From contig CAKKNE010000004.1 of assembly GCA_918797485.1 (NCBI GenBank), positions 806,001 to 870,000 on the forward strand: a stretch of 64,000 nt of DNA, read 5' to 3'. This document shows positions 10,032 through 49,272 of this stretch, in pieces. The translations under genes were made by a program, and so were the position numbers. This DNA comes from Pelagomonas calceolata. Its lineage: Eukaryota. The notes beneath the pieces are model-generated. The model made no database searches. It worked only from the letters and a program-made list of their open reading frames with translations, and was not told the origin of the DNA. Each line of letters begins with the position of its first letter. Position 1 is the stretch's first letter.

Positions 10032-10332
10032 CGGGCAGGCTTTACGCCGTTGACGGCAGCTTGGAGGCCTCGCAGCAATGCACGACCGGCGCACTAGTCG
10101 AACAAAGCCCTTGGGGCAGCCCTGCGACGCGCACGCGAGCTCGCGCTCGATCCTCCCGCGATCCTAGAGTGTCTCACGGGCCACTAGGATTTCCTACACA
10201 TCAGAGCACTGCACGAGCTTTTCAGACTAAGTGTTGTTAAAAAGATTATTACTCTTCGGACACACTAGAATGAATGTGAATTGAACGTTCGAAAAAGGCT
10301 CGGTCGTAGTAGTAACATGAATTCTCGCGGCA

Positions 10333-23538: not shown

Positions 23539-23780
23539 GTTTTGGCATACTACTACCTGTCGCCAGTGTCCTCGGGCCGCCGTCGCCGACGCAATGGCTT
23601 ATTTATAAATATTAGCATGGCAGGATATGCCGCGCCGGTTCTCGACGCGACGAAGAAGGGGGCGGGCGATACGAACTGCGACTGCGACCGATGCACCGTG
23701 GCGATACACAGGGGGCGACTGCGACCGATGCACCGTGGCGATGCACCGGGGGCGAGTCCGGCGAGCTCGCGGGGAGGCTA

Positions 23781-26700
23781 TCACACCTCGCCCGTCTTGG
23801 GCGGCGGCGGCGGCTGATCAGCGGCGGCCGCGGGGGGCTTGGCGGGCGCGGTCCGCCACGGCCCGTCGTATGCCGCCTCGGCGGCGCGCGCGCCGGCGGC
23901 GTCCTTGAAGACCACCATCGCGGCGTTGCCGCTGCCGAGGCCGACGTTCAGCACGGGCGCGAGCGCCTGGAACGTCTCACGCAGCGTGTCCTCCGTCGGC
24001 CGTGCGGCGCCGCGCGGCCACGACACCTTGAGAATGCAGGCCGGGTCGTAGGACGCCGGCGTCGGGCGCGCTGTCGGTTTCGCCTCGGGGTACGGCCAGG
24101 GCGGCAGCGACTGGCCGCCCGGGTAGGCGGCCGGCTTGGACATGTCGCTGAGCTCCAATGCGCCGCCGGCGGGTCGCGGCGGCGCCTTTTGGACCTCGAG
24201 CTCGACGTCGACCTCGACGTTCCTTTCGAAGGTGTCCTGGTCTTCTTTGTTCGTTTCGTGAGTCTCGACGTCGATGGCGTCGTAGTTCGCCCGGGCGGCG
24301 TCGTCCCACGTCGGTTGTCTCTGATTCGCCTCGATCTGAGCAGTTTTCTGGCGATGGTAGCGATGGTACGCGTAGTAACCGATGGCGGCGACGGCCAGCA
24401 AGAAGACGGCACCGGCGGCCAGCCCGCCGCCCGACGCTGCCGCAGTTTGCTCGTTCTCATCTTGCATTTGCTGGAGCATGTCGTACAGTACTTGAAGGTC
24501 GACTGGCTCTTCGCTGGAAGTCTTCTTCCACGACACGTCGAAGGTCATGCTGTGTGATTCGGGGCCCCGGGCCGGCTTCGACCAGGAGGACGTGCCTATG
24601 TCCCAAATTGGGTATTCGACTGCAATCTCGCCGTACGACCTCGAAGCAGGGTTCTCGTCCATGCTTGTCTGGTACTGGTACACCTCCTGGATGCCGTCAT
24701 CGTCTGGATCCTCGCAATCCGCGTAGAGTTCGAGCTGGATCTTCGAGTACTTGTAGCACTGATCTGGCATGTCGTCGTTCCGCGCGACGAAGATGTGAAC
24801 CTCGGACTGTCCGTACGGAATCGGGTCAATAACCAGGCCGTCTCCGTCCCGCATATTTAGGTTGGTTAGAGATACCGCACCCATCTCGAGCGCGCCCATG
24901 TCGCCCTCAGGACACTCGTCGCCGGCATCCGTTTGTTTCCCCGAGTACCACCACGTCGTGCCGCCGTTGGCCGCGCGGAGCCAGTACCGCACGCCAGCTC
25001 GCCAAGGCGATCTGTTCTGAAGCTGCACGGAGAAGAAGGCGGTCTCGCCGGGTTCCAGGTCTTTGCAGCCTTCGGTTGCGCACTGCGGCGTGATGCTAAT
25101 GATGCTGACCCCGCTGTCCCGCCGTGTCGTGCCCGTCTCACCGGGGCACGACGAGAAGCCCCCCAAGGTCGTGAAAATGGGCGTGCCGTAGGTCGCATCC
25201 ATCGCGACCTGGACGGCAAACACGTCCCTCACGTTGTCATCTTTAAGGGAAACAGCTACGGTGTGCGTGTGTCCGGTCTCCTTGTTGGCGGACCGCGACA
25301 TGCTCACCGAAAATGAATCTGTTTCTGCGTGACCCCACGTACCACAGCCCTGGATGCCGAGCTGCAGGCGGCGGCGACACCCGCCGCCTTCGGGGGGGCC
25401 CTCGTGTTCGGGCGTGTTGATCTTCTGCGCGGCCGTGAGAATCTCATTCATTTTATCCTTGGTGGCTTGGTTCACTGGGAGTTTCCGTCGCCCCTGCTCG
25501 GGCGCAGCCGCCGCCTCCTCCACCAGCTTCCGCCGTTTCTCCGCGAGCGCCTCGGGCGTCACCTCGAGCAGCTTCTTGGACACGGCGTGCACGGGACCGC
25601 TCGTCGGGTACGCGTAGCCGGCCAAGGACACGAGGCCACTGCTTGAACGAGACTCGTCGGTCAGGCGCCGGCCGATCTGAAAACCAAAACTACCGTCGTA
25701 GTTCCAGCCGCCCTCTAACGACCCATCCGTGGTCACGGACACATCGGACCCGCGCGCCTCCGCGACGTCCCACGAGAAGTCGACGCCCGTCGAGCCGGAG
25801 AACGTGAGGAATCTTTCCGTGTCGCTGAGGAAGTTTAACGCGCTCAGATAATGAGCTCCGCTCATGGTCGTTCCGATGCCGGGCACCGTACCGTCTCGCT
25901 TGCAGAACGTCTTCACAGACTCGATGTCAGTCTCAAAGCCGCACACGCCGAGGAGCGTCTGGACAAGGTCCACTTTCTCTCCGATGTTTTGGTAAGCGGT
26001 GCACAGAGGATGAAGATTGGTGGGATCTATCTTGCTCGTTGCCACGGCGCAAGCTTTTGCTGCTTCCGTGACGCTATCACTCACCTTGCCGACCGTGTCC
26101 TCGATATATTTGTGCCCGTCAAATCCTGCAGATTTTTCCTTAATATCGTCGGTGACCCCTCCGTCTTCAACTCCCCCATCAGGTATCACAGACTGCATGT
26201 CCTCGCCACGCTTGTGCCTGTTGAGGTTCTCAATCCCCCGCGCGACGAAGTCCTTGACTTCGGAGGACTGCGCGTCGCTTAGGTCGTTTAGGTCTTTGTG
26301 AAACTTTGTAAAGTCCGTGTGCAAACCGTCCATTACCGTCTGAAGCTGTGCGGCGACGCTCGTCTTCTCGGTTGCCCGGTAGGCTGTGAGCACTTTCTCC
26401 CAATTAGTTAGCTGTGTTTGCAGTTTCGTAGCGTCCATGCCCTCACCTGATATTTCCATGTCTCCATTACCTATGTCCCGAACCGCTTCGCCCAAACGCT
26501 CGATCGTCTTCTCGATCTCGTAGACCGTCATGACGTACGTCGTGATCCTCTCAGGTATGAACTCGACCGTCTGCCTTCCGGCGAGACAGATCTCACCGTT
26601 TCCATTTTTCCCCTCTCCCTCTGGTGGGTCTCTGTAGACCTCTATGGCCGAGATGAAGCGCAGGTTGGCGCCGCCACCAATAATAACATCGGACGGCTGG

Positions 26701-29700
26701 CCCGCCAGGTATGGCGAGTCAGAAGTGGTGATGGCAATTCCAAAGGAGATGCCGATGTCAAAGTGTGACGATGATCCGCGGCTGACGGTAATGCTAGTAC
26801 TATCTGACTGACCTCCTCCATGGTTGGTTCCAATACCCACGCCGTTGAAAATGACCCCGGGCGGCGCAGTTTTGAAACCGCCCTGAATGCCTCCAGAGGC
26901 GCTCCATTGGAACGTCTTGCCCAACGTTGCGGCGTGCGCGCCCTCGATGGCCATGGACGTCGAGATTGTTGACCCTTCGACGAGCGTGGCCGTCGACGCG
27001 CCGCCCGGCGGGTCGCGGAGGACCGAGAAGATCAGACCCTCCACGGCCGTCGTCCAGACCTGAGGAACCTCCTCAGCGATCGATCCCAGTATCAGCACGT
27101 GGCGCTCGAACAAAATCCTGGCGTTGTCGAACGCCCGCGTGAACTCCACGCTGATCTTCTTCGAGAAGGGCGCGAAGGGGTTGGGTTCGCCGGCCGTCAT
27201 GAAATGCGTGAACTCGAGGATGGATCCATCGCTCGACTCGGAGCAGGCGGTACTCGGGGTGATACTTGGGCAGCTTTCCTCGTAGTCCTCGGGGGTCACG
27301 CCGTCGGCGACATGGATCTTGATCTGGTGGTCGTCCGACGGCAGGTTCACACTAGGCGGTGGGTTATTCTCGTAGCCGTTACATTTGCCGCCCTCATCCC
27401 ACGGATAAATACCGTCGGCACCACAATTTGGCTCGCGCTCCACGAGCTCGAACTTGAACTCCACGACGTCGCCCTTGTTCAAGATCGAGTCCTCGTTGCT
27501 GGTACAGGCCTCGCCGTAAATGTTAATAGTGTCGTCCGTTTCAGGGTCATCCGTGAGAGGTTCGGGGGGCGAGAGCAGGAGGTCCTCGATTTTAGATCCG
27601 GCCTTTACTGCATTGAGACAGAGCGGCGAAATGATTTCGAACTGAACCAAGGCCGCCGCCGCGCTATTGTGGGCGAGATCCCTGCCAAAGTTTCGATCTA
27701 CCGGCAGCTCGTCTACGTAGGTGTAGTCCATGGTCGCGCAGGGTCTCTCTGCGCTCCCGGATACGTCGGGGATCTTCGCGCGGCAGCCGCGGAGCATAAT
27801 TTCCTCAGCGTTCACGGTGTCATCATCGTCACCAGACACGAAAAGCGTTCCTACCATCTCATCGCGCGGCGTCGGACCGTCAGGGTCGCCATCGCAGTCG
27901 TGAACCACGAGCTCTTGGTCGGCATTAGATAAAGTGCCGGGCGGGTAGTAATACTTCGGCTCGTCGACCTCGTCCGCCTCGAGCACGCGCACGTCGAACG
28001 CGGCGGCTCCGAGCCAGAAGGCGGCCTCGCCCCGCAGTATCCAGGCCGGCAGCTCCCACCCACAGCGCGCGACGCTCGCGACGACCGGCACGCCATTCAC
28101 GTACGAGGCCGGCTCTCGATTCGCGCCCGCGACGAGTCTCGCGGAGAGGCTCTGCATACTCGTGTCGAGGAAGTGGACCTCGGCATTTTCGTCTGCCTTG
28201 TAGTTGAACGTCGGCGCCTGGCCACCCGATGGATTGACCGAGAATTGCGTTGCTTGGGCGGCCGAAAACGCGTGCGTGACCGAGAACGTGTGCGCGACGG
28301 AGTTGAAGCTACAGAGGTAGTCCTTTACACACTGATCCGAAGGCCTCGGATCGTCGTTGAACTGAAACCCTATAGTATCATCCCAACCCGTAATAGAGAT
28401 CCAGGATCCCGCCTGGTAGCTTTCCGACGCAGATTTCCCTCCGTTCGGCTCATTGTAATATGTTGATGAGGCAGTCTCTGCCTCTCGCAGAAACCACGGC
28501 GACCCCGCGACGCTCGTCCAGCCAGCGACGACGGCCCCCGCGTCGTCGCTATTCATCGCGTACGTAATGGTTTCGGGATAAGTCCCATGCTGCTCGCGGT
28601 AGACGCCGACGAGGTTGGGCAAATGCTCTTTGCCCGTGATGCTTTGGTACTTATCACGCACGGCCTTTGCGTGCTCGTAGCTCCGCGGGACCCAGATGTC
28701 GTAGCCAGCGGGGCAGGAGTTGTCGTCGAAGTGACCACATGTCAGAGTACCATCTATCACCTCGAGGACGTCTACAAACTGCGTCCCCGTCGTGTCCGTG
28801 AATTGGACGCAGTGAAGCGAGCGGCCTTCGTGTGTGGACGTGCCAACAGCCGTGCACTCGGGCGGAGAAGCGCCGCCGTAGTATTCTTTCAGGCTGAGCG
28901 TCACAATCTCACCGTTGAAGACGGCGGTCGAGTACGTGCCGTCGTCCTGCAGCTCCACGTCTTCGACGGCTCCCGAAGCGCGCGTGATCTCGAGCTTTGC
29001 GCCGTCGACGGAACAGATGCACTCCTCTGTGTCCGCCCTCGTGTAGATGGCTGCGACCGAGATGGCGGTATCGGGGGCGAAGCCGGATCCGGTATCTTCC
29101 TGCCAAGTACCAGATACTGCCTCAAGGTCCTGGGCCGAGTCAGCCACATGTATCGCTGCAGAAGCACTTCCACAGCCGTCACTTCCGATGTGCCATTTTC
29201 CAGTTTTGTACCAAATATACTGATCGCTGCTGCAGTCGACGCACTCGTAGTAGGGCACATCCTCGCACAGCCCGTTCTGCCGGTACGTCCCGTGCGTGTC
29301 TTGATGATTGGAGGTTCCTGAGACAAGGAAAGAGTCTAACAGGAACTGGAACTTCGTGTGAGGGCAGTCCTCAGCGAAGTAAGCGGCACCGAAGCCGGCG
29401 TGCGACACGGTGCCCGAGATGACGACGGCCGTCTCGTCGATGAAGGTCAAGGGGGCCTCCTCCAGGTGGCGCAAGATCGCTTGCTGGGTTGGGGGCTCGA
29501 AGTCGTGTTCCAGTATTCCGAGGACCTTGATCGGATCGCCCCAGATCCGGCTGGTAGCAGAAGTTGGGTCAGTAGAAGAGCCGGTCAAGGTAGCCCAACT
29601 GGATCCAGCGTAATTGTTCGTAGTAATACAGGTAGATTCGTCGTTGATAATCCAAACTTTATCCGCGGAACGCCATAGGTAGCCACCGCAATCCCTGCAC

Positions 29701-32700
29701 TCGTAGCGGGGCATGCCGTTGCACAGAGCTATGCTGTTGCTGCTGCTATCAGGAACGGGGAAGTATGCCCCGTTCCTGTCCAGCGAGTCGTCGAATCCCG
29801 AGACCCTCAATGGGCTCTCTTGGTCGTAGTCCGCGCCCTCCTTTTTATCACTTAACTTCTCGACGTCCACGCGGAAGTGCTGCGTTTTACTAAACCAATT
29901 GCTATCCTGGACGCGCACCCTTAGCACCGCTTCTCCGTAGGCATCTGTCTCTTCCTCGAGGAATTCCCTGTATGTCTCATCGACGTCCACTTTGCCGCTG
30001 CCATCATCTTTCATGCGCGACAGCTTCACGGTGACTTTCTCGACTGGTCCACCTCCCTCGGCCACGACGGAGACCCGAACGTCGCCAAACCACGTCACGA
30101 TGAAGCCGCTGGTTGTGGACGAAGAAGCCCCGCCCTGGAGTCGCCGCGCGCGCCTCCGGGAGCCGCTGCTCGATAGGGCGAATTTGTCCCCGCTCACGCC
30201 GACCTTGTCCTTGATCTCGGCGCCAGCCGCGTCGAGCGGCACGATGGCGTAGCCGACCCCAAGGCCTGGCTCTGATCCTGTCGTGGCGTCGCGGAAATCC
30301 AGATAGTTGTGCGTGAGCCCACACGTAGAAGAAGAGACTTCGCGCAGGAGCCGGGCCGACGTGTCCTCAGCGAACGGCGCGGAAGGGTCGTATTTGTAGA
30401 TGCGGTAGCCGCTCGCCACCGTCGACGTGTCGAGCCAGCTAATCGAGACGCCTTCCTTGCCCAGCATGCGCGGGAATATATCCATGGGCGTTCCGTCGTA
30501 CTGGAGGCCCGTCGTGCAGCGCGTCGTTGTCGTGATGCCCTCCGTATCTAAGTCGCAAACTGGAATCTCCTTCAAGCAGATGTCCGAGAGCGTGACTTTG
30601 GCGGCGTCGTACCACGGATCCGCGACGTACACGGCAGCGTTCTCCCGAGCAGGGGTCGAGCCCCCGGTAGAGGTGGCGAGCTTAACGCCATCGACGTACA
30701 GGACCAGCTTGCTCTTATCGAGAACGACCTTGATGTCGTAGGTCCTTCCGGCCGTGAAACCGAAGGAGGTGTCGGTGGATGCACCACAGCAAGTGTCATG
30801 GTTTACGTACAGTCTGTTGTCGTTTGGTTCAAACCAGATGCCAGGCATGCGGTGGCCATTTTCGTCGCCGATGTGAAAGACGGACTGCCACGCGCCCGTG
30901 ATGCTCCAGTCACCCGCCAGCTCCATCGTGAACGAGAGCACGTAGTCCTCGAACGTGACATCGGCAGTCCCCACCTTGTTACCCTTGGAAGCGGTGTATG
31001 GACCGGGCAGACTCAGCGCGCACTCGGCCTGGCCCACACCAGGACAGAACTTCGTCTCGACGCAGTAGCTGTGCTTGCTGATGGCGAGCGCCTCGACCTC
31101 GCGAAAGATAACGTCGGAGATCGTCGCTTTTACTGGCGCGTACCAAGGACCGCCCACATATAGCACGCCGCCGTCCGCGGGCGCACTCGTCGAGGTTCCT
31201 TGTGTAGAGACTTCCAGCAGGCCGTCCACGTAAACGCTGAGCAACGAGTCAATATTGGTGATTCTGATCTCATAAGATTCGCCCGCCTTGAACACAGTAG
31301 TCGCATATGCATTTGTCTCCCCACTGTTTTCGTTGCTACGGGCAACATACAAGCGACCCACGTCCGAAAACCAGAGACCGGGGTAGCGTAGCCCGTTCGC
31401 CTCGTCCTTGCCGGTCAGATGGATAATAGAAATGGTAGATCCGAAAACCTCATCTTGATCCATGGCGATGGTGAGCGAGAGCTCGTAGTTGGCCGGTGTC
31501 GGCACCGTGCCCAGGTTGCAGCCGCCGTCGGAACACATGTTACCAGAATTATCTCCGCAACCGGAACCAACCGCGGCGTCCAACGTGCACCAGCTGCCGC
31601 ACGGGCCACCGGCAGTGTACGAGGCGTCGTTGTAGCAGATCCCTGGAATACTTACGTGTGGGTACGGGAAGCTCGCGGGGCACCCGCATGCGCCGACGTC
31701 GATCGGCGCGCTGTACTCGCTTGGCCATAAATTAACGACGAGCTCGCCGTCTGGCGATTCGACGCAGCTTCCCTCGGAGGTAATCTCACCCGCGGCCGTG
31801 CAGGGGCTTCGATGGTGAGACTCTACCTTGTAGTCGGGACCGAGTTGGAACTTGAACTCGCACTCGGAGTCGAATTCGCCGCGGCAGTCGTTAGAATCTA
31901 CGTTGCTGTCTCCACTCGAGACGTCGTCATCCCAGCTATCGTACGCAGAGAGCGCCTGGCCGTTGAAGAAGGCGCACTGCTGGAAGATGATCTTCTCGCC
32001 GCGGTCGACGGTCCACTCGAGTTCTGGTTTAGCCTGATTCTGGGTTGTACATTCGGTGTTCGTAGAGAGGGGATTCGGATAGGTCGCCGTCATCGCCGAG
32101 ATTTCGCCGGAGCCGCTCGGCTTATCGTGGTAGTCCTTCGTGCCCTGCGTCTCCAACCGGTCGAGCTCATCCTGGATCATGTCCGTGATGGTCACGTCGT
32201 TCTCGTCCAGCTTGACGCCATCTCTCGACCAGATGTGCGACACCTTCAAAGGAATCGCCATGCCACCGTCCGCTATCGCCCTCCTTGCCTGCGCGGACAG
32301 TGAGTCACCGACGAACGCGGCCTCGGTTAATAATTGCATTGATAGACGCTGGCCCTCGCCTCGGTGACGCTTAAATGATTGTCCGAATTCACGTCGAATG
32401 CACGGAACGCTGCCGAGATGCCCGAGAAGGCCTCGTTCCTCGAGAGCACTCGCGCGTGCCGCGGCCATTGCACTTCTAATACAAGAAATCCGAGCGACAC
32501 CGCTGGCTTCGTGCCCGCGCATTCAGCTTGATCGCAGTTCGTGCCGGTTTGGCCGGGTGCGCAATCGCACTCGTTTTCGCTCGTTAAGCCGCTCTGGTTC
32601 GGGTCCCAAAGACTCTCAAGGTAGCCAGCGTAGCCGACGTCGCCGCACTTCAAGCATTCGCCGGCTTGGCCTCCCGTCGCGTACGTTCCCGCGGGACAGA

Positions 32701-33654
32701 TCGAGCAAGAGTTGGGTTGACCTGCTGTCGAGGACGTGCCCGCGGGGCACGGCTGGCACGTGCCGCCCTGCACCGAAAATTCTCCCGCGGCGCAAGTCAC
32801 GCAGGCCGTGTGCGCCGAGTTAGACGTCTGGCCCGCGGGGCAGGCGGCGCACGCAGTTCCCGCGCTCGAGATGTAGCCCGCGGGGCAGTCTTGACACCCG
32901 CTTTTGGCTGAGTTCGACGTCTGGCCCGCGGCACATATTCCGCACGAGGCCCATGCCTCTCCAGAGTAGTATCCCGTGGCGCATGCAGGACATCCAGTGT
33001 TCCTCGCATGAGGAGAGTAAGTCCCCGCAGGGCAGTTCGTGCAGCCGCCATTGGCACTCCCGGAAGAGTACTTGCCCGCGCCGCATTGACCGCACGAACT
33101 CCACGCCGCTTCGGAGTACCATCCCGCGCCGCACAAGTGAACGCACGAGGTTTGGGATCCGGCACTTGGTTGATACGTCCCGGCTCCGCATGCAGTAGTC
33201 GCTCCGTTGTTGTAGATATTACTATAATATCCTGCTGGAGCCGATAGGCATGCGCCGAGGGAGGTTGTCCAGCTGTAATAATCGCAGCAATAGCCGTGAC
33301 CGTAACCTGGCGTGTGGCTTCCGGGTCTACCGGGCGGGCAATACTGGCCATGATAATGACAACTCCATCCGCTACACCTGCGTCGTTTCGAGGTTAAGTC
33401 TGCCGACGGACGCGCGAGCACGATCGGTCGGAACACCGGTTTGATTTCTACACTGCGCGATACGACGACGCGACACCATTGTTGGCGTCTCCTGCTGCGA
33501 ACCCCGCCGCCGCCAGCAGCGCGCCGCCGACGCGCCCGGCTGCGGACCCGCGCGCCGCGAGCACCAGCGCCGCGCTCCCGGCTGCCCTGGGGTGCTGGCA
33601 GGCTGCCGCGAGCACCAGCGCGGCGGCGAGCGGGGCAGCCTTCTCTTTTACCAT
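23781..33654 (-). CDS. Giant single-pass membrane protein A (about 3238 aa; exons 33654-33464, 33377-32360, 32288-23781)
   Basis: Signal peptide MVKEKAAPLAAALVLAAAC, GCC2/TNFR-like C..CPAG repeats, EF-hand loop DVNSDNHLSVTE, LamG-like modules, LRDPPGG core, TM GLAAGAVFLLAVAAIGYYAY, RRM-like tail. Exon joins are guided by alignment to paralog B; the total is a multiple of 3. Confidence 0.85.
32289..32359 (-). other. GC-AG intron in giant gene A (71 bp), absent from paralog B
   Basis: Removal gives LSVTE|ARRAIADGGM, matching the uninterrupted LSVDEARHALRDGGM of gene B. Confidence 0.8.
33378..33463 (-). mobile_element. Degenerate introner intron in giant gene A (86 bp)
   Basis: Donor GTATCGCG (8 nt) is followed by TIR-like CAGTGTAGAAATCAA. 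The downstream exon starts GTGTAGCG (6/8 TSD match). The phase-2 join links the signal exon to the Cys-rich exon. Confidence 0.65.
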
Positions 33655-33764
33655 CGGGCGTGCTCTCGTCGTGTCAGGTGCTGCCGCGCGACGCGGTACG
33701 CCCTCTCGGAATTTGGCTCTCTCTCGGCCGGCCGCTGGGCGCGGCGAGCCGATCCGCGCAGATC

Positions 33765-34320
33765 GCGCCGCGCAAGACCGCTCCGGGAAGGCCCGGACGA
33801 GTCCCACGCAACCCTCGGGAGGGATCTCGCGCGGCGCTCGCGACGGCCGCCGCGCGTGCCACCTAGAACATGATCGACATGGCGTTGCCCCGCCCGCCCT
33901 TGGGCGCCACGAGCCGGCCCTTGATGAAGTATATTTATATTTTAATGTTGCTTTGCTTAGGGCTACTTAGCACCGTTTGTTCTCGGCGCGGGCGAAGCAG
34001 GCGATACGAACCAGCACAGTTGCGACTGTGACCGATGCACCTTTAGCGACTTCCGGGCGGCGCTGGGCGTGTGCGTGCGGCCGCTCAGCAGCGGCGAGAC
34101 GTAGAAACTGTTAATCTCTTTATACTAGGGGATACTACACCGGGGGCGGCCCGGGTGCAACGGGAGCTGATGGGGAAAGGGAGTCGCTGTTTGCCGATGT
34201 ACCGTGGCGATACAACGAGGGGAGTCCAGCGAGCTTATAAGGAGGCCATCACACCTCGCCCGTCTTGGGCGGCGGCGGCGGCTGATCAGCGGCGGCCGCG
34301 GGGGGCTTGGCGGGCGCGGT
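33765..34320. repeat. Duplicated spacer (promoter of gene A, PA28 3' fragment, 3' flank of gene B)
   Basis: Near-identical to about 45745-46318. Confidence 0.9.
33860..33923 (-). pseudogene. Fragment of the PA28 3' coding end
   Basis: cacctagaacatgatcgacatggcgttgcc...cttgggcgccacgagccggcccttg matches the PA28 end at 46463-46525. Confidence 0.8.
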
Positions 34321-37300
34321 CCGCCACGGCCCGTCGTAGGCGGCCTCGGCCGCGCGCGCGCCGGCGGCGTCCTTGAACACCACCATCGCGGCGTTGCCGC
34401 TGCCGAGACCGACGTTGAGCACGGGCGCGAGCGCCGCGAAGGTCTCGCGCAGCGTGTCCTCCGTCGGCCGGGCGGCGTCGCGCGGCCACGACACCTTGAG
34501 AATGCAGGCCGGGTCGTAGGACGCCGGCGTCGGTCTCGTCTCGGGGTACGGCCACGGGGGCAGAGACTGGCCGCCCGGATAGGCGGAGGGCTGTGGCGGC
34601 GCCTTTTGGACCTCGAGCTCGACGTCGACCTCGACGTTCCTTTCGAAGGTGTCCTGGTCTTCTTTGTTCGTTTCGTGAGTCTCGACGTCGATGGCGTCGT
34701 AGTTGGCCCGGGCGGCGTCGTCCCACGTCGGCTGTCTCTGAGCCATCTCGACCTGAGCAATTTTCTGATGGTGGCGATGGTACATGTAGTAACCGATGGC
34801 GGCGACGGCCAGCAAGAATACCGCGCCGACGGCCAGCCCGCTGCCCGACGCCGCCGCCGTTTCCTCGTTTTCTTCTTGCATTTGTCGGACCATTTCGAAT
34901 AGCTCTTGTTGATTCTCGAGTAGTTGAGCGAGCTGGTCTTTTTCGCCAGCACCTTCCTTCCAGGACACGTCGAAGGTCTTCCTAGACGTGTCGGGGCCGT
35001 TGGCCTTCGACGCGTCCGTGAAAGTGTAGAGGTCACAGTGTTTGTATGGGGCCCATGGGTCCTTCGCCAACAACTGTTCCCGTTCCGTGGGCATGGCGGT
35101 TGGAGCGAAGCTGACATGATCGTCCTCTTCTTTCTCTTTTTCTGGAAATGTTAGATCATCCTTCTTCGTGAGGAGGTGGGTGGTCGTTTGGCGCGTCTTG
35201 TAGTCTTTGTGGTCTGCGGGTTTGGTGACGTCGTAAGTCACTAAGTCGTCCACCAGGCAATCGCAGCCGTTCTGGCAGCGGCATTGCCCGGTCACCTCCT
35301 CCCAGTCGATCGCCTTGAGCTCAAAGGGCCCGTCGACTGGCGAGCACTTAAACTCCTCACCCTTGTCATCCGTCTGTTGTATGAACGAGATCGGGCAGCC
35401 TTGCGCGGCTGCAGACTCCATCGAGGGAACCTTCTCGATCTTGTTAAGGACCTCGATTTTTTCATTACACTTCGACCAGCAACTCGCTGGAGACAGCGTG
35501 CAGTCCACGGCCAGGTTCAGGTCCGAGTAGCACCATTTACCGTCGCCATGATACGTGGAAGCGGGAGTGGTGCCTGCGCCGGCACCAGTAGTAGCAACGA
35601 TGCCATCAAGATCAACGATGCCCGCGGCAGGACAGTCTGTTCCAGCCGAATCTTCGTCAGCACATTCAGCAACTAAGGTGATGCCGGGGTCCAAACCGAC
35701 GGGCCGCCCGACAAACTTCGGGTGGACCACGCTAACAGCGCCATTCTCAGGATCCATGTGCGCCTGGTACTGGTACACGTCCTGATTGTTGGCCCAGTCC
35801 GTGTCCTCGCACACCGCAACGAGCTCGAGCTCGAGGTCTGAGTACGAGCGGCACTGCGGCGTGAAGTCGCGTCGAGACACGAGAAGCCGAATCTCGGACT
35901 GGCCGTAGGGAAGCGGCGCGAGTTCTTCGCCAGCGCCGTTGCGGAGGTCACCGGAATCGGAGCCAAGAGGGTTGATCAGCAAGGAACCGAGGTCGCCGGG
36001 GGGGCACGCCTCTTCAACAAGCCGGGCGTACTTGCCCGAATCCCACGCCGTCGAGGCGCCGTTCACCGCGCGGAGCAAGTATCTCACGCTCGTCACCCAG
36101 GGCGAGAGATTTTGGAGCACCACGGAGATAATGGCGTCCTGGCCGGGCTCGAGATCTTTGCACTCGCACGTCAGCTTGCTTTTGCAAAGGGCCTCGCCAG
36201 TATCGGCGCTTTCTTTGATATCAGCATCGGAGACACACAGAGGCTTGATCTCCTTGATCGTCACGCGCGAGTCGCGCCGCGTCGTGGCCGTCTCGCCGGG
36301 GCACGACGAGCGGCCTCCCATTGTCGTGAATATGGGTGTGCCGTAGGTGGAGTCCTGCGAAATCTTCACGGCGAAGACGTCCTGCGCGTTTCCGTCCTTC
36401 AGGGAGACGGCGACGGAGTGCGTGTGCTCGGCCTCCTTGTTCGCGGCGCGTCCCAACGATACCTCGAATGAAGAGGATGTCCCGCCTTCGAAATCGGCGC
36501 ACGCCGTGATGCCGAGGCGACGGCCTCCTTCGTCGGACATTTTGGTCAAGCGCCGACGGCATGGGTTGCTGTCGTCGGGTTCATTCATCTTGTTCGCAGC
36601 CGCATTTACAGCGGCTACATCAAGCTTGTCCTTTAGCCGCCGCCTCTCCTCGAGCGCCTCCGGCGTCACCTCCAGCAGCTTTTTGGACACGGCCAGCACT
36701 TTTCCAGTCGTAGGGTAGGCATAGCCGGGCACGCCTTTATCGGTGGCCTCTAGGCGCCGCCGCCCGATATTGGCACCGAACCCAAGGCTCCCGCCTATTG
36801 CGTCGTTGACGGCCCCGTCGTGCGTCGAAGAGAGTTCCTGGCCGCGAGACTGCGAGACATCCCAGCTGAGTTCGATGCCCGTGGTCCCAGAGAACGTGAT
36901 GAAGTGCGTGGTGTCGGATAGCGCGTCGAAAGCGCTGATGTCCTCGTAGTTGCCCGTATCCGCCCGATATGGGCCTTTCTTGCAGAACCTGTGCGAAGAT
37001 CAAACCTGAGGTCGAATGGGCCCGCGAAGAAAATGATTGAATTCAAAAGCACTGTGCAGAACGCTTCTACCGCGTTCAGTCCGTCCTTTAAGTCGCAAAT
37101 GCCGAACAGTGAAGACTTGAGCTCGAGCTTCTCATGGATCTCCTTGTAGACACTGCACAGCCGGGCCCCTCCGCCGGGCTCCGCGAGTTCAACGCTAGCG
37201 ATGCAGTCGCTATATACAGAATTAACTCGGTCCAAAACGTCGTTCTCGTAGAGCTCTAGCCGAGGGCGGTCCGCGACATCCTCCATCGTTTCCGCATCGC

Positions 37301-40300
37301 TTAGCGCTGTATCGCCCACCGGTCCCAGATTATTCTGCTCCCGATGGTAGATTAACTTGTGCTTTTCAAGTTCGTTTAGACCATGTGACAAAAAGTCAGA
37401 GAACTGATCTGCCTCAAAACCACCCGTGGTTGCAGCCTGTAGAAAGCTTTGAAAGTTTTCGTGGATGATGTCCAACTCGTCCTTGAGCTGCTCGGCGACT
37501 GACAGCGCCTGGTCCTTGATTGTCGCGGCTCTGTAGTTCGCGAGCACGGTCCGCCAGTTCTCGATCTGCTTTACGAGGTCGTCGCGCGGGTCGGGCCCGC
37601 CGCCCTTCGCCTCGATCTTTGTGTTCGGATCGGTCAGCGCCGCACCGATGCGCTCGATCGTCTTCTCGATCTCGTAGACGCTCATGACCCACGTGCTGAT
37701 CTGCTCGGGTAGGAACTCCAGGGCAGTGAGGCCGCCAAGACAGAGGCCGCCAGTAACGTCGGGATCCACCTTCGCATAGATCTCGATGGCCGAGATGAAG
37801 CGCAGGTTCGCGCCGCCGCCGATGATCACGTCGGACGGCTGGCCCGCGATGTAGGGCGAGTCGGACGTGCTGATGCTGACGGAGAAACTGATGCCGATGT
37901 CGAAATGCCGCGAAGTTGAACGCGAGACGGTCACGTCCGTGGGCGTGTGCGCGTAGGAAAAGCCGGCGTTAAGGCCAACTGAGGCAACGTTTTTAATCAC
38001 AAACGCCCCGACGCCCAATCCTCCTTTCACAGCGACTCCAGCGCCAACCGAAGCGCCAAACTCAAAAGAGTCTTCCAGCTGGGCGGCGTGCGCGCCTTCG
38101 ATGGCCATGGACGTCGAGATGGTGGAGCCTTCGACAAGTGTGGCCGTCGACTCGCCGCCCGGCGGGTCGCGGATGATCGAGAAAATCAGCGTCGGATTCG
38201 TGGCTGCTGTCCAGACCTGCGGCACCTCTTCTGGAATCGACCCAACAACCAGCACGTGGCGCACGAACAGAATCTTGGCGTTGTCGAACGCCCGAGTAAA
38301 CTCCACGCTCAGCTCGTGCGAGAACGGCGCGAACGGGTTCGGCTTGCCCGCCGTCATGGTGTGTTTTAATGTCGCGGTTCCAGCATATTCGCCGCTGTCC
38401 CCGATTCCGCTGACACCGTCGGCGACTCGAATCTTGATCTGGCGGTCCGTCGGTAGGCTATCATGCGCCGGCAGGGAAACGTCATTGTAGCTGCTACATA
38501 TATCCCACGGATAAAGACCGCTGCCTGGACACGTGGGCTCGCGCTCCACGAGCTTGAACTCTAGCTCCACAGCGTCGCCCTCGCGGAAGATTGCGCCCGT
38601 GTTCGTGGTGCAAGCTTTGCCATACAGTCCATCCTCCTCGGGCTCGGGTAATTCCGACAGGAGCAGCATGCTCTCCGGGCCGTCTATAGGGTAAGCAGCG
38701 GTATCCCGGAGAAGTGGTTTTCCGGCATTGTCTACACCAGGGTCGATGAGCTTCTGGACAATCAAATCGGTCACCGCATCGGCTGCTTTTCCGCTTGACG
38801 ACACAGTTACAGAGTCCAGGCAGAGCGGCGAAATGATCTCGAAGTCAACCGGCTCGAGGTTGGTAAGGTCCGAGAGGTCCTTGTCAAAGTTTCGAGTCAC
38901 CGGCAGCTCGTCCACGTAGGTGTGGTCCATGGTTGCACAGGGAAGCCTCTCGGTCTGGCACTTTTTATTGGCGGGAGTTTCACCTTCGCCGCACTCTCGC
39001 ACCTCGGGGATCTTCGCGCGGCAGCCGCGGAGCATAATATCTTCAGTACTCTGGGTGCCACTGGCATCGGTCACGAAGAGTGTTCCGACCATGTCGTCGC
39101 GAGATAGCGTATCCTCATCGCAGTCGGGGACCGCTAACTCCTGGCCAGCATTAGACAGATCACTGAGCGGGTAGTAGTACGCCGAGTTGTCGACCTCGTC
39201 CGCGCCAAGCGTGCGAACCTTGACCGCGGCGGCCCCGACATTGCCAAAGTCGGCGACGCCCCCCAGCGTCCAAACTGGTTTCTCCCAGCCGCAGCGCGCT
39301 ACGCTCGCGACCACCGGCAGGCCGTTCACGTAGGATGCCGGGGCCGGGGCTGCGCCGTGGACGAGCCTGGCAGAGAGGCTCCGGATACTATCGTCGACGA
39401 AGTGCACCACGGCGTCTTGGGTCGCCATGTACGTAAAGCTCGGCAAGACGCCGTCCTGCTTGCTAATCAGGGAGTCCCCCGATTCCTGGGTGACCGAGAA
39501 CGCGTGGAGGCTCACGCGGCTACAGAGGTAGTCGGTGAAACACTGTTCCGGACTCTGGCCCGGCAAAATCGGAGCGTCGTCAAACTGAAACCCTAGAGTA
39601 TCATCCCAACCCGTGATAGTGATCCAGGAGCCCGCCTGGTAGTTCCCTGCAGATGTCCCGCCGTCCGGCTCAGTGTAGTATCCTGATGCCTCAGCTTCTC
39701 GCAGGAACCACGGCGACCCTGCGACGCTCCGCCAGCCGGCGGCGACGGCTCCCGAGTCGTCGCTGTTCATCGCATATGTAATGGCTTCGGAATGAGCCCC
39801 ATCCTGCTCGCGGTACACGCCGACGAGTTTTTTGAAATTGCTATTAATGTTCGTATCATCCCAGATCGCCTTTGCGTGCTCGTAGCTCCGGGGGACCCAG
39901 ATGTCGTAGCCAGCGGGACAAGAATTAACGTCGGTGTGATCACAGGTCGGAGTACCTGTCACCGCGACAACGTCGACTAGGGATTTGTCCGGCAGCTCGA
40001 TGCAGTGAAGTTTCCCGAGGCTACTATCATCTGGGTCATAGTCTCGGCTTTCGACTTTCTCGCAGTCCGAATTCACACCAACGCCGTAGTATCTGCCCAG
40101 GTAGAGCGTCACCTGCTCGTCCTCGAGAACTGCAGTCGCGAACCTTCCGTCATTTACTGTCACTTCTTCGTGGTCTCCAGATGCGCGTATGATGAACACC
40201 TTCGCGCCGTCGACGGGGCACATGCACTCGCTGGAGTCCTCGCTCTTCGTGTGTGGACAGTCGGCGGCGAAGTAATTGGCGTCAAGGCCGGCGTGCGAGA

Positions 40301-43300
40301 CGGTACCGGAGATGATGTTGACCGTCGTGTCAGTGAACTCAAAGGTGGTCTCGCCGAGGTGCTTCACGGACAAGTCCTTGGAAGGGGGCGAGAAGCCGTG
40401 AATTACATCGACATTGTTCGCGTTCTTTGACGTCTTCTCGACCTCCACGCGGAAGTGCTGCGTGAGGGTAGTCCACGACGTATCTTCGACGCGAATATTT
40501 AGCAGCGCTTCCCCGTACTCGTCCGTTTGCGCAGTGACGAAGCCCATCTGATAATTCTGGTCGATAGCGTTGTTGACCAAGTGGGCAACCTTCACGGTAA
40601 CGTCCTCGACTGGCCCGCCGCCCTCGGCTTCCACCTTCACCCGGATATCGCCAAACCACGTCACAATAAAGCCACTTGTCGTGGACGAGGCCGACGCCGA
40701 CGAAGAACTGAGTCGTCGGCGCCTCTCGGAGGACAACGACGCGGAGCTGCCCCCGCTCACGCCGGCCTTGTCCTTGACCTCTTTGCCGGCGTCGTCGAGC
40801 GGCACGATTGCGTAGCCCACTTGTAGGCCCGGCTCCGAACCGGTCGTCACGTCGCGGAAATCTATATAGTTGTGCGTGAGACCGCATGCAGAAGTGGAGA
40901 TCTCCTTCAGGAGCCGGGCCGACGTGTCCGTGGCGAACGGCACAGAAGCATCGTACTTGTAGACGCGGTAGCCCGTCGCGACTGTCGACGTGTCGAGCCA
41001 GCTGATGGACACGCCTTCGTTGCCCAGCATGCGCGGAAAAATATCTGCAGGCGTCCCGTCGTACTGAAGGCCGGTCGTGCAGCGCGTGACCGTGAGAGCT
41101 GGGTCGGCGAGAGTCGCGTCGCAGACCGCAGTGCCGCTGGGGCAAAACTTCGTCTCGACGCAGTAGCTCTGCTTGCTGATGGGCAGGACTTCGAAAGAGC
41201 TAGTTGTCGAGAAGCCCCTCACGTACGCGTAGGTGTTGCTGTATGCCATAAAGCCGAGGTAAGTCGTCGTCCCAAATGCGGAACAATAAGATCTGCTAGA
41301 CGTAAGGACATCCACGCCGTCGACCGTCCACGCATCCAGGTACACACAATTGTTCCTCGTCGCAAAGACCAAGCGCCACGTGTGCCACTGCGTTGGGTCT
41401 GTCACGTCTGCCGGACCGTACCACGTCTGGCCTGCCACAGAGTTATCCCACTGATAGTCGCCAAGGCCATACCTCCCTCCATCAGAGATCCACCAAAGAT
41501 CAGGTGTCTCCCGACCCGTCGAGCCCAACGACGAACGAAACGGCTCGAAGAACCAATGCGGCGTTATGCTCGACTGCTGTCCAGTCACGGGTGTCGTACA
41601 GTCGGCCTCGTAGCAACCGCGGGTCTCGAACTCGACGACGAGGGAGCCTTCGAAGTCCCATGTGACGGGAACGTCGAGCGAGCATGCCCCGAGGGTCTTC
41701 ACTGAGAGCTCGCTCGCCGTGACGGAGCACCCCGAGGTGCTGCCGATAGCAGAGGCGAGGTTGACCGGAGCCGCAATAGCCGCTTGCTGGTGGTAGCTTT
41801 TGACCTGGTAGGAGTCTGGCAGATAGAACTCGAATTCGCAGACTTGAGCTCCGTCTGTCCCGCTGCAGTCCGTAGAATCGACATTGCTTCTCCCGCTCGA
41901 GACGTACTCGTCTAGATTGGCGAGAATGTTGCTGCTTTTTGAGAAGAATCGGCGTAGATACGCGTAGGTGCCGCCGTATGTGGCTAGTCCGAGGTATGTT
42001 GTTTTGCCATACGCGGAACAATACTTGCGAGTGGCCGTAAGGACATCTACGCCGTCGACCGACCAAGCATCTAGGTACACACAATTGTTCCTCGTCGTAA
42101 AAACAATGCGCCACGTGTGCCACTGCGTCGGGTCTGCCACGTTGTTTGGGCCGTAGTTAGTCCTGTCTGTCGCAGAGTCATCCCAAGAATAGTCACCAAG
42201 GCCATAGGTAGCTGTATCTGAGATCCACCAGAGATCAGGCTGCTCGCGGCCCGTCGAGCCTAACGACGAACGGAACGGCTCGAAGAACCAATGCGGTAAA
42301 ATGTTCGTCTGGCCTCCGGTCACGGAAGTCGTACAGGCTTCCTCGCGGCAGCCGCGGGTCTCGAACTCGACGACGAGGGAGCCTTCGAAGTCCCACGTGA
42401 CCGGCACGTCGAGCGAACATCCATCATTGCCCGTAAGCAAGAGCTCGCCGTCACTCGTGACGGAGCACCCCGAGCTGGTGCCGATGGACGCCTCTAGATC
42501 GAGCTCCGTGTCCCGAGAGGGCGCCTCACCGTTAAAGAAGGCACACTGCTGGAAGATGGTGTTGTCGCCGCGGTCGACGGTCCACTCAAGGAGCGGTTGC
42601 TCCTCGTGCTGGTCCTCACACTCATCCTCCGTAGTGAGCGGATTGGGATAGGTCGCCGTCATTGTATCGATTGCGCCGGCGCTCATCGAACGTTCGTAGA
42701 ATTCCTTCGTGCCCTGCGCCTCCAACCGCGCGAGCTCGTCCTGGATCATGTCCGTAATAGTCACGTCACCCCTGCACGTTTCTGCTGCCACCCACGTCGA
42801 ACCAACGCAGCATTTACCGCTCGAGGGACAGTACTGGCCTTCTACGGAGCAGTCCTCGGCGCAGGAGTCAGCAGCCTCGTGGATTTCCACGCGCGCCCCG
42901 TTTTCCACGCGGGACCAAACGTGGGACACCTCAAAAGGAACCGCCATGCCGCCGTCCCGCAGCGCATGCCGTGCCTCGTCGACGCTCAGACGATTGTCCG
43001 AGTTCGCGTCGAACGCGCGGAACGCGGCCGAGATGCCCGAGAAGGCTTCGTTTCTCGAGAGCATTCGCGCGTGCCGCGGCCACTGCACCTCCAAAAGGAG
43101 GAAGCCGAGCGACACCGCCGGCGTAGTGGTCGCGCAGGTCTCCTGCTCGCAGTTCGTACCGGTCCTGCTCAGGGCGCACTCGCACTTATCCCCACTTGTT
43201 ATGCCGCTCTGTTCCACGTCCCAGAGGCTCTGGTCCCAGACGTCCTCCACGCACATCACCTTATCAAACTGGAAAGTTTGCTTCGATGAACCAGTGCCCC

Positions 43301-45542
43301 ACCATGGGTTAGAAACTGCGATAGTTGGAATGCCGTCGCAGCCGGTAGCGTGGTGCGTGGCGCAAAAAGTGTACCCGGATTCCAGTGAGCCCATTTGGAG
43401 CCATTGGTTGTCGTTGACTTCGAAAGAGCTAGTTGTCGAGAAGCCCCTCACGTACGCGTAGGTGTTGCTGTATGCCATAAAGCCGAGGTAAGTCGTCGTC
43501 CCAAATGCGGAACAATAAGATCTGCTAGACGTAAGGACATCCACGCCGTCGACCGTCCACGCATCCAGGTACACACAATTGTTCCTCGTCGCAAAGACCA
43601 AGCGCCACGTGTGCCACTGCGTTGGGTCTGCCACGTCTGCCGGACCGTACCACGTCTGGTCTGTCGCAGAGTTATCCCACTGATAGTCGCCAAGGCCATA
43701 CCTCCCTCCATCAGAGATCCACCAAAGATCAGGTGTCTCCCGACCCGTCGAGCCCAACGACGAACGAAACGGCTCGAAGAACCAATGCGGCGTTATGCTC
43801 GACTGCTGTCCAGTCACGGGTGTCGTACAGTCGGCCTCGTAGCAACCGCGGGTCTCGAACTCGACGACGAGGGAGCCTTCGTTCCACGTGACGGGAACGT
43901 CGAGCGAGCATGCCCCGAGGGTCTTCACTGAGAGCTCGCCCGCCGTGACGGAGCACCCCGAGGTGCTGCCGATAGCAGAGGCGAGGTTGACCGGAGCCTT
44001 GATAGGTGCTTCAGCATTGCAATCCGAAGAGTAGGGAATCCAAGCGTCGGTCTGGTCGACCGCACCTGTCCGCGAGGGGTCTTCCCCGTTTGGACATAGG
44101 TCGCTGTACGTTGCGAGCGAAAGTCCGAGCGCCGCGCACGTCGCCTTCTGTCCTTCCCACGAGTAGTCCCCCGATGTTATTTGCGTCCAAAGTGTGCGGC
44201 GAGGCTCGCCGCACTTTGTGCATTCGGTGGCGCCTCCCACCGAGTACGTTCCCGCGGGACAGAGCGTGCACTGGCCTTGCCCTGGCTCAACGAACGTACC
44301 GGCGGGACACTGCGTGCACGGCCCATGCGGACCAACGATTCCCGAGGCAAATCGGCGTAGATACGCGTAGGTGCCCCCCCATGTAGCTAGTCCGAGGTAC
44401 GTTGTCTTGCCGAACGCGGAACAATAAGAGCGGGTAAACGTGATGATCTCCGCGCCGTCGACCGTCCACTCGTCCAGGTACACGCAGTTTTCCCTCGCCG
44501 CAAAAACAAAGCGCCACGTGTGCCACTGTGTAGGATCCAGTCCGTTTGGACCGTAGTTGGTCCTGTCTGTCGCAGAGTTATCCCACTGGTAGTCGCCAAG
44601 GCCATCACCATTTGAGAGCCACCAAAGATCGGGCGGCTCGCGACCCGTCGAGCCTAATGCAGTACGGAACGGCTCGAAGAACCAATGCGGCGCAGTGGCC
44701 GACCCGACTGGGTCACATTCCTCATCGAGGCAGCCCTTCGTCTCGAACTCGACGACAAGGGAGCCTTCAAAGTTCCAGGTGATCGGCACGTCGAGCGAAC
44801 ATCCATCATTTCCCGTCAGCAAGAGCTCGCCGTCACCCGTAACGGAGCACTCCGAGCTGCTGCTTTCTATAGCTGCCTCCAAATTGATCTCCGCGCCTCT
44901 AAACGCATCGTCGCCCTGTCCTGCGGCCGAAAACGACCCGGCGTCGCACTGCGTGCACGAACTTGCCCCGACCCCTGAATACGTGCCCGCGGGACAAGTC
45001 GTGCACAAGTCGGCTCCCGCCGCCGCATACGTGCCCGCGGGACAGGACGTGCACGAGCCGGCCGCAGCCCCGGCGTACGTGCCGGCGTCGCACGGCGTGC
45101 ACTCGTCGGCTCCCTCCGCCGAGTACGTGCCAGCGGAGCATGTTTCGCACTCGCAGTGTGTGGCCGCATATTCGCCTGCTGCGCATGTCACCTTATCATT
45201 GAAAGGATTGCAACCCCTGCGTGGTACCGACACGGTTTCTGGCGAAGCGCGAGGGCGAGCTACTGTACACACTGCATCGCGCGTCGTCGTGCCATCGTCA
45301 AGGCGTCGTTGGTCCTTGAGCCCGACGTCGGGCGCGCCACGCATTTTGTTCCTCCACGGCCCGAGCCACCAGCGCCCAGCGGCGCCTTCAGACTCGTCTA
45401 CCTGCCCCGCCGCCGCGAACTCCGCTCCCGCCAGCAGCGCGCCGGCGCGCCAGGCCGGGCTGCCCGCGAGCGCCGAGGCCGAGACGGCGGAAGAGGCCGC
45501 CACCAGCGCGGCGACGGCGAGGGCAGCCCTTGCTCTTTCCAT
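34249..45542 (-). CDS. Giant single-pass membrane protein B (about 3739 aa; exons 45542-37063, 36988-34249; possible extra in-frame intron 45217-45282)
   Basis: Signal peptide MERARAALAVAALVAASSA, Cys-rich repeats, four about 170-aa beta-sandwich-like repeats, EF-hand, IRDPPGG core. TM and tail are nearly identical to gene A. Confidence 0.85.
36989..37062 (-). mobile_element. Introner intron (74 bp) with perfect 8-bp TSD GTTCTGCA
   Basis: TSD at 37055-37062 and 36981-36988; ends CAGTGC... and ...TTCGCACAG. Removal restores VEA|FCKK in frame with ORF 34249..36732. Confidence 0.9.
41190..44890 (-). repeat. Four internal coding repeats in gene B (about 41190-41772, 41945-42500, 43419-43996, 44350-44890)
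   Basis: Each encodes CSLDVP.TW..EGSLVVEFET.GC...PHWFFEPFR...PDLWW...DPTQWHTWR...NCVYLD.W.VDG. The copies at about 41190 and 43419 are almost identical in DNA. Confidence 0.9.
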
Positions 45543-45744
45543 CGTTAAGCCCTTTTCTGATTTGCTCCTCCCAAGGTGCTGGCGCGTGACCGCGCACCGA
45601 GACCTTTCTACTCGCGCACGACCAAGCTCGTCAATGCCTGGAAGGTGCTGCCGTGCTGCCGACAGACCGCGGCCCGGTGCGCGGCTGCCTCCCGCCCGAG
45701 AGCAGCGCAGGCGCTGGCTCAAATTCCGGCAGGCGGCGGGATCG

Positions 45745-46318
45745 CCGCGCCGCGCAAGACCGCTCCGGGGAGGCCCGGACGAGTCCCACGCATCTCTCGG
45801 GAGGGATCTCGCGCGGCGCTCGCGACGGCCGCCGCGCGCGCCACGTAAACGAGAGGGGCAGCGACACCTAGAACATGATCGACATGGCGTTGCCTCGCCC
45901 TCGGGCGCCACGAGCCTGTCCTTGATGAAGTATATTTATATTTTAATGTTGCTTTGCTTAGGGCTACTTAGCACCGTTTGTTCTCGGCGCGGGCGAAGCA
46001 GGTGGATACGAACTGTGACTGTGGCCGATGCACCTTTAGCGACTTCTGGGCGGCTGGGCGTGTGCGTGCGGCCGCTCAGCAGCGGCGAGACGTAGAAACT
46101 GTTAATCTCTTTATACTAGTAGGAGATGCTACACCGGGGGCGGCCCGGGTGCAACGGGAGCTGATGGGGAAGGGGAGTCGCTGTTACGGAACGGCGGCCG
46201 ATACACCGTAGCGATGCACCGGGGGCGAGTCCAGCGAGCTTATAAGGAGGCCATCACACCTCGCCCGTCTTGGGTGGCGGCGGCGGCTGATCGGCGGCGG
46301 CCGAGGGGGGCTTAGCCG
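45745..46318. repeat. Second copy of the duplicated spacer
   Basis: Matches 33765-34320, including a PA28 fragment at 45863-45924. Confidence 0.9.
46254..46318 (-). pseudogene. 3'-terminal remnant of a third giant-gene copy
   Basis: Encodes AKPPSAAADQPPPPPKTGEV*, matching the last 20 aa of genes A and B, with their 3' flank. Confidence 0.85.
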
Positions 46319-49008: not shown

Positions 49009-49272
49009 GGGCCGATCGTCTTGAACGCCTACTACAAGTGGACGCGAAGACGAGCGCCACAACGAGGTACTCGTGAGAGGTTTGAGAGGAGGGCGTGTGC
49101 TTCACGTACTACTGATGGACGTTTCGAGAGCTGACGTGTGAGATGGTTCGAGAACGCCCACAAATGCGACCGTCACCGCGCAGGCCTTCGACTGCTCTCT
49201 ACTTCAAGAGCAAGGGGTGCCCTACCAAGACACGCGCTGCGTGCGTGTAGACGGACTGCGGGCCCAAGCAAG

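Follow-up and report, generated by a model that had tools for sequence, protein, structure and literature searches.

Tandem giant proteins of Pelagomonas calceolata carry a core predicted to form oligomeric beta-barrel pores and shared with Bacteroidota-group bacteria

Two very long reading frames, one spanning 23781-32522 and the other, in two parts, 34249-45935, lie side by side on the minus strand of a 64,000-nucleotide (nt) stretch of the Pelagomonas calceolata genome, hereafter the window (assembly GCA_918797485.1, contig CAKKNE010000004.1, positions 806,001 to 870,000 of the forward strand). The corresponding genes, which we call gene A and gene B, are tandem paralogues with 48% identity over the best BLASTP segment of 1118 columns. 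Both encode a giant protein with a conserved core, and this core most likely represents an undescribed family of beta-pore formers for which pore formation and activation by cleavage are predicted.

Genes A and B are transcribed and spliced. In three raw poly(A) runs that share one sample label, 423, 758 and 4154 reads fell on the gene A stretch and 944, 996 and 3365 on the gene B stretch, all on the expected strand, strongly 3'-biased and with partial cross-mapping between the paralogues. Together with one contig set, these runs placed introns at 33376-33461 and 32287-32357 in gene A (position slack 2-4 nt) and at 36981-37054 (80 reads) and 45216-45281 (1 read and one contig) in gene B. The protein lengths in Table 1 were calculated from these joints. 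Gene A corresponds to NCBI CAH0373291.1 (P. calceolata, 3238 amino acids (aa)), to which it is 99.97% identical over exon 3. A start of gene A at the beginning of its open reading frame (ORF), 32522, was ruled out by the RNA joints and the NCBI model, which place it at 33654.

Table 1. Coordinates of genes A and B and of their features within the window
Feature	Position	Strand	Basis and remarks
Gene A	23781..33654	-	3238 aa; coding exons 33654-33462, 33375-32358, 32286-23781; RNA joints and NCBI model P0281
Gene A N-terminus	32358..33654	-	likely signal peptide (by eye), Cys-rich ephrin-receptor-like repeats, weak EF-hand near 32395
Gene A LamG (Laminin_G_3)	30630..30905	-	better of two Pfam stretches, E 1.7e-7
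Gene A core	25134..27017	-	exon-3 ORF aa 1836-2463; homologous to bacterial 308-aa core
Gene A hairpin 1	26727..26999	-	strand A 26999-26871, strand B 26861-26727; pairing from bacterial coevolution
Gene A helical block between modules	25818..26429	-	AlphaFold helices at model 196-403 and alignment
Gene A strand C (hairpin 2, first strand)	25674..25790	-	alignment and strand mapping
Gene A charged insert	25365..25670	-	102 residues, tip of hairpin 2, RRL-bracketed, four RRL-type motifs
Gene A strand D (hairpin 2, second strand)	25245..25364	-	alignment and strand mapping
Gene A predicted transmembrane helix	24366..24425	-	hydropathy peak; cytoplasmic tail onward to 23781
Gene B	34249..45542	-	3717 aa; coding exons 45542-45282, 45215-37055, 36980-34249; RNA joints and ORFs
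Gene B four repeated extracellular domains	41187..44893	-	self-BLAST; two copies 97.5% identical in DNA
Gene B core	36289..38171	-	split by intron 36981-37054
Gene B charged insert	36514..36762	-	83 residues, tip of hairpin 2, RRL-bracketed
Gene B predicted transmembrane helix	34780..34840	-	hydropathy; ends approximate

A preliminary description of the locus had given both proteins a signal peptide, Cys-rich repeats, an EF-hand, lectin-like sandwiches, a conserved core, one membrane helix and a cytoplasmic tail. The Cys-rich repeats were recovered by Pfam in both (Ephrin_rec_like, E 4e-11 in A and 3e-7 in B), as was a LamG domain in A, and hydropathy gave a single membrane helix C-terminal to the core in both (19-residue peak 1.96 in A and 2.07 in B). 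On the other hand, the EF-hands fell under the Pfam cut-off (E 0.059 and 0.0026, respectively), and the four repeated sandwiches of gene B, lectin-like by eye only, had no Pfam match. The signal peptides were assigned by eye. The cytoplasmic tails are 75% identical, above the rest of the genes, and by hydropathy a single C-terminal membrane helix with a cytosolic tail is also present in most full-length eukaryote-type homologues.

The core runs from an RDPPG motif (27017 in gene A, 38171 in gene B) to an SCPGE motif (25151 and 36306), the same limits that had been proposed for it. The four stretches of alternating residues that the preliminary description had singled out coincide with the mapped strands and support amphipathic hairpins, although the second stretch also holds the charged, non-amphipathic insert. 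The helical block it had placed between them appeared as helices in the AlphaFold model of gene A, where it is much longer than in most bacterial cores. Column hydropathy showed the polar/hydrophobic alternation in bacterial and eukaryote-type alignments, in the latter on all four strands, and the frame motifs of the core are conserved.

When 7982 candidates were searched with the gene A core, 12 proteins were obtained: pelagophyte proteins (Pelagophyceae CCMP2097, Aureococcus anophagefferens), others, and one bacterial-type protein with a type IX secretion system (T9SS) tail (P0012, E 1e-8). The core of P0012 in turn matched 714 of 7993 candidates. When gene A was compared with a profile built from 78 bacterial cores, two separate parts of it matched (E 3e-32, calculated over a small local set). 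Judged by these sequence comparisons, the algal core is homologous to the 308-residue core of hundreds of T9SS-tailed Bacteroidota-group proteins, and the similarity reaches flanking Ig-like and carboxypeptidase-regulatory-like domains in some members. The suspected Bacteroidota link was thus upheld as homology, with the refinement that most of the bacterial relatives are not LamG proteins: among the 120 P0012-core matches listed, 107 carried a T9SS tail domain and only 8 a LamG domain (PF13385).

Used as query in an exhaustive phmmer search, the gene A core yielded 756 representatives at E <=0.001, of which many full-length ones have a hydrophobic helix and a tail at their C-terminal end. When species genomes were scanned by pattern, at least 522 confirmed stretches out of at least 600 were returned; the 80 of these viewed by taxon were mostly from Bacteroidota, with a few from Chlorobiota, Fibrobacterota, Calditrichota, KSB1, Latescibacterota and Marinimicrobia. 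With the phylum sampled evenly, the core occurred in 8 of 201 genomes (the centre genome counted among the 8), and one genome had 8 core matches. The core sits mid-chain in proteins of 1500-5000 aa and is flanked on either side by Ig, FN3, Kelch, DUF11 and LamG domains.

In a midpoint-rooted FastTree phylogeny of 130 cores over 201 frame columns (thinned by identity from 227 rows past the gap filter), the membrane-tailed proteins formed one clade (support 0.967) with a T9SS protein as its weakly supported sister (0.51). A single membrane-tailed clade fits one transfer from bacteria, the direction of which it does not prove. A few bacterial members (P0275, L168 and L183) have an insertion of 60-115 residues between the modules, as do the eukaryote-type proteins; only P0275 lies near the latter in the tree, with weak support.

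To describe strand pairing we aligned 260 distinct bacterial cores (334 profile hits, 305 past the gap filter; effective number of sequences (Neff) 188) and calculated couplings by corrected inverse covariance. Four long antiparallel ladders were obtained, joining strand A (positions 36-73) to strand B (82-116) at sum 156, B to strand C (239-268) at 355, C to strand D (275-308) at 545-547, and D back to A at 344. The peaks were sharp, with side peaks two residues off. The non-adjacent pairs showed parallel offsets instead (A-C 201, B-D 190), as the strand order of a ring predicts.

Against 200 column permutations, the ladders scored 2.45, 1.62, 1.67 and 1.95, with a null maximum of 1.54 (25-residue window). 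Against 40 independent-site simulations on the family tree, A-B, B-C, C-D and D-A scored 2.42, 1.58, 1.40 and 2.09, where the null maxima were 0.73, 0.96, 0.76 and 0.88, respectively; antiparallel A-C (0.58) and B-D (0.57) were at null level. Two disjoint halves of the sequences recovered the same four best registers. In the aerolysin family, coevolution has likewise been compared with inter-monomer pore contacts (PMC5654971, excerpt).

Hydrophobic residues occupied odd positions in A, B and D and even positions in C, as they must if the four strands are to share a face, and at the hairpin tips the segments of strongest amphipathicity lay in register in all four strands. Glu, Lys and Gln, which point inwards, would not fit a closed four-stranded barrel made by a single chain, so at least one ladder should run between chains, and from this we infer that several chains, each giving four strands, build a barrel or tube. 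Of all steps of our interpretation, such an oligomeric barrel in the bacterial family has the best support, and the ladders favour a ring-forming beta-barrel architecture. In aerolysin-family oligomers the beta-barrel is double and concentric; a ladder closing an outer ring (last strand to the neighbour's first strand) was looked for in the bacterial couplings and was not seen. With regard to barrel shear, the registers of the highest peaks leave a mismatch of no more than 2 residues per chain, and the second peaks permit other values.

In the predicted bacterial model, the strands fall into two modules, at 24-29, 38-57, 93-111 (after a loop), 130-149 and 154-175 in module 1 and at 227-235, 240-261, 280-307 (after a loop), 315-322 and 329-338 in module 2. 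The gene A model has the same strand order (compared by order, not by superposition), and each half of the core shows the order typical of aerolysin in these models. Because hhalign detected no similarity between modules 1 and 2 (probability 3.4%, versus 2.5% for a reversed control), the suggestion of an internal duplication derives from strand order only.

No Pfam match to the core was found at E 0.1 in either gene, and no NCBIfam match to the gene A core. Searches of the PDB by phmmer and profile gave no significant match (the best relevant row was CEL-III, E 0.19), and the viral contigs searched gave no usable one. Our literature search, which was mainly of openly accessible texts with supplements set aside, found no publication on the core. 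These results agree with the earlier claim that the family is undescribed. The main text of the P. calceolata genome paper makes no mention of toxins, phagotrophy or mixotrophy (PMC9481584); genes A and B could be listed in its supplements.

Known pore formers share some features with the core and lack others. Like the aerolysin family (aerolysin, epsilon toxin, Laetiporus lectin LSL, monalysin), each core half has the same strand order, the hairpins alternate polar and hydrophobic residues, and the B-C and D-A pairings correspond to the contact of strand 3 with strand 2 that neighbouring chains should make. Unlike that family, which has one inserting hairpin per pore-forming domain, the core has two modules with four strands per chain, sits within a far larger protein with a T9SS tail in bacteria or a membrane anchor in algae, and has its predicted pro-piece at a hairpin tip rather than at the C-terminus. 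Since it has two hairpins, we did not place it in the aerolysin family. PF01117 and PF03318 had no match in A or B at E 0.1 and are absent from the 25 of 47 families listed for the 78 bacterial cores; sequence conservation in the aerolysin family is known to be weak (PMC3110756). A search of 151 genomes for ETX/MTX2 members gave no match, and neither did its controls. The aerolysin-family structural matches were weak and their scores not significant.

The core has two hairpins, as MACPF/CDC proteins do, and its D-A ladder in the bacterial relatives recalls MACPF/CDC pores, in which each chain contributes two hairpins and the fourth strand pairs with the neighbour's first. The MACPF/CDC monomer has a bent four-stranded sheet and two helical clusters; our models, which may show a pore-like state, give the hairpins as strand or low-confidence coil. 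No MACPF or thiol-cytolysin profile matched A or B in Pfam at E 0.1 or the gene A core in NCBIfam, and the core was not placed in MACPF/CDC for lack of a profile match; the fold is also absent among the fold rows listed. Gasdermins and CsgG are oligomeric barrels with four strands per chain, as predicted for the core; gasdermins are protease-activated and cytosolic, unlike the secreted or surface-tethered A/B-type proteins. Translocating pores of the anthrax PA and Vip type have a long barrel whose membrane belt is confined to the tip, Ig-like flanking domains and activation at a basic site, all of which are present or predicted in the core family, but they have one hairpin per chain and not two. 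Gasdermin, CsgG and anthrax PA had no sequence match and are absent among the listed fold rows. Of the toxin parallels drawn in the preliminary description, those to aerolysin gained the only structural leads, which are weak; nothing pointed towards MACPF/CDC or anthrax PA by sequence. Perforin-2 (MPEG1) is membrane-anchored and proteolytically processed (PMC13631362, excerpt), and A and B resemble it in their predicted single C-terminal membrane helix and cytosolic tail.

The charged insert lies at the tip of hairpin 2. Across 20 insert-bearing proteins it spans 28-109 residues, 28-57% of them charged. Pattern anchoring succeeded for 54 of the 160 eukaryote-type proteins examined, 24 with a long segment at this tip and 30 with a short one. 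RRL-type motifs stood on both sides of the segment, directly behind strand C and directly ahead of strand D, in 22 of the 24 long-segment proteins (the two misses look mis-anchored); none of the 30 short-segment proteins had any such motif, and 1 of 260 bacterial cores had one there. The insert-bearing, pelagophyte-type proteins form one subclade (FastTree support 0.886), which suggests a single gain of an RRL-bracketed insert that was kept in place rather than 22 independent cases.

In diatoms, Silicanin-1 is a single-pass membrane protein whose N-terminal pro-domain ends at an RXL motif, and RXL domains are removed by an as yet unknown protease (PMC5525289, excerpt). Going by that excerpt, the A/B-type proteins resemble the diatom RXL-domain proteins (Silicanin-1, silaffins) in having RRL motifs in secretory-pathway proteins of a related algal group, but differ in that their paired motifs bracket an internal insert. 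A charged tip loop would block insertion, so cutting it out would arm the pore. The insert is therefore likely to be a cleavable plug, as predicted from motif placement, which makes the protease step of the preliminary description plausible; members without an insert must be controlled some other way.

Taken together, we think it probable that the cores of A and B belong to tethered, processed and oligomerising beta-pore formers that are perforin-2-like in logic and aerolysin-like in local topology. From its sequence, the chain would enter the secretory path and stay tethered by its one C-terminal helix, and the lectin-like and Cys-rich heads on their long stalk would bind a target surface. 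An RXL-type protease would cut on both sides of the charged insert, which otherwise would stop hairpin 2 from crossing the membrane. Strands A-B-C-D of one chain, followed by A of the next, are predicted from the bacterial couplings to close a ring that is polar on the inside and has its hydrophobic belt where the hairpins end in tips. As to the target, our guess is either a cell that touches the alga or has been engulfed or, as with perforin-2, a compartment membrane of the alga itself. Here lysis, cleavage and target are what we infer.

One finding limits this interpretation: 56 eukaryote-type cores gave couplings at noise level and no ring signal, in an alignment that is under-powered (Neff 32, as compared to 188 for the bacterial set). 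The lack of a signal would fit a rival reading in which only the bacterial members are pore formers and the algal copies have been repurposed as surface or cell-covering proteins for adhesion, recognition or membrane fusion, RXL-processed like diatom wall proteins and making no lytic pore. The Gly-rich hairpin 1 and weakly hydrophobic strand B of gene A, the expression of both genes in all three RNA runs (one sample label) and the RXL mark on diatom silica-associated proteins (PMC5525289, excerpt) are consistent with such a change of role. However, the low power blunts the negative result, and the alternation kept on all four strands of the eukaryote-type alignment and the conserved frame motifs speak against repurposing, which we regard as improbable. 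Somewhat better placed, though still unlikely, is a core that oligomerises without lysis and, as a tube, filament or conduit for translocation, serves to display or deliver the domains attached to it; CsgG and secretins would then be the apt likeness rather than a toxin. The ladders indeed show strand cycling and not lysis, the core lies mid-chain among Ig, FN3, Kelch, DUF11 and LamG domains, no immunity-like neighbour was found among the bacterial loci, and secretins appear among the Foldseek rows (template-modelling score <0.1). On the other hand, an outward hydrophobic belt that lies in register at the four hairpin tips, leads from fold and feature comparisons over module 1 that are weak but all pore-forming toxins, and a removable charged plug at the tip, which fits controlled membrane insertion, all favour a pore.

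It could also be argued that the core is no more than a monomeric domain of the ordinary Ig/FN3-like or enzyme kind within a large adhesin, in which the alternation is a beta-sandwich pattern, as the preliminary description itself had set against its reading. Antibody Fab chains do top the Foldseek rows and the flanking domains are Ig-like, but the bacterial ladders, their repeat in both halves and the simulation controls largely disfavour this explanation, and we consider it very improbable.

Beyond the pore former proposed for A and B, a wider and more tentative suggestion, which we hold as possible rather than probable, is that the core represents a new structural class of beta-pore former, in which two fused aerolysin-type modules give each chain four strands. 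Bacteroidota-group bacteria would secrete it by T9SS, marine algae would have acquired it and tethered it to their membrane, and pelagophytes would have added the protease-removable plug at the hairpin tip; the algal form would then be a counterpart of perforin-2 against bacteria, viruses or grazers. If the pore prediction holds, an oligomeric beta-barrel family of at least several hundred members would be added from under the annotations "LamG / T9SS domain-containing" and "EF-hand", an abundant open-ocean picoalga would gain a candidate for an immune effector or for a weapon used on contact, and aerolysin-type pores with one hairpin would be linked structurally to MACPF-type pores with two. 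A cleavable plug at the pore tip would, if true, be a control mechanism that our literature search did not find described. With its 330 residues, the bacterial core makes the proposal directly testable.

The neighbours of the bacterial genes are mostly two-component, TPR and LytTR regulators, and one BLAST cluster spans 38 of 160 loci; around these 160 loci we found no widely conserved small partner gene and no immunity-like neighbour. The bacterial genes often have a hybrid two-component sensor, a TPR regulator or a stand-alone LytTR gene next to them, for example at L001:2751-5711, L014:3839-5737, L037:10704-11063 and L005:10783-12956. A small lipoprotein-like gene without a Pfam match follows in 6 close loci (L001:10857-11294).

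Several observations concern the C-termini. The last approximately 80 residues of the tails (23784-24000 in A, 34252-34470 in B) had no Pfam match and by eye resemble what we take to be an RRM-type fold. Nine homologues (P0182, P0184, P0193, P0202, P0222, P0228, P0231, P0258 and P0262) end in a Tyr-Gly-small-x-hydrophobic motif, which resembles a tyrosine-based endosomal sorting signal; such an ending in the membrane-tailed subgroup would fit a vacuolar site of action. Apart from the C-termini, some homologues (P0006, P0011 and P0140) carry a JmjC-type domain (PF08007) within the same chain.

With regard to the introns, 32287-32357 in gene A and 45216-45281 in gene B are RNA-supported and, as mapped, not GT..AG; the latter is 66 nt long and preserves the frame. 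The 74-nt intron of gene B (36981-37054) has an 8-nt direct repeat at both ends (36981-37062), and direct repeats at intron ends recall introner-type insertions. It is shorter than the 210-bp peak reported for the P. calceolata genome (PMC9481584, excerpt). Reads per million over 23400-46400 differed approximately 11-fold for gene A and 4-fold for gene B across the three runs (X21, X22 and X24), which carry the same sample label, differ in 3' bias and come with no stated conditions.

Upstream of gene B, 46191-46316 is a remnant of the 3' end of these genes, 88% identical to 23718-23843, and 45746-46316 repeats 33764-34311 at 86.5% identity. These may be the trace of a third tandem copy or of a duplication breakpoint. 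Elsewhere in the window are a tandem array with a period of approximately 143 bp (48157-49012, 94% identity) and a direct repeat of approximately 420 bp (9564-10879, 69% identity). By Pfam, the neighbouring genes encode proteasome activator PA28, DENN-domain, RING-finger and RanBP zinc-finger proteins (46468-47175, 59659-62808, 4871-9214 and 21835-23538).

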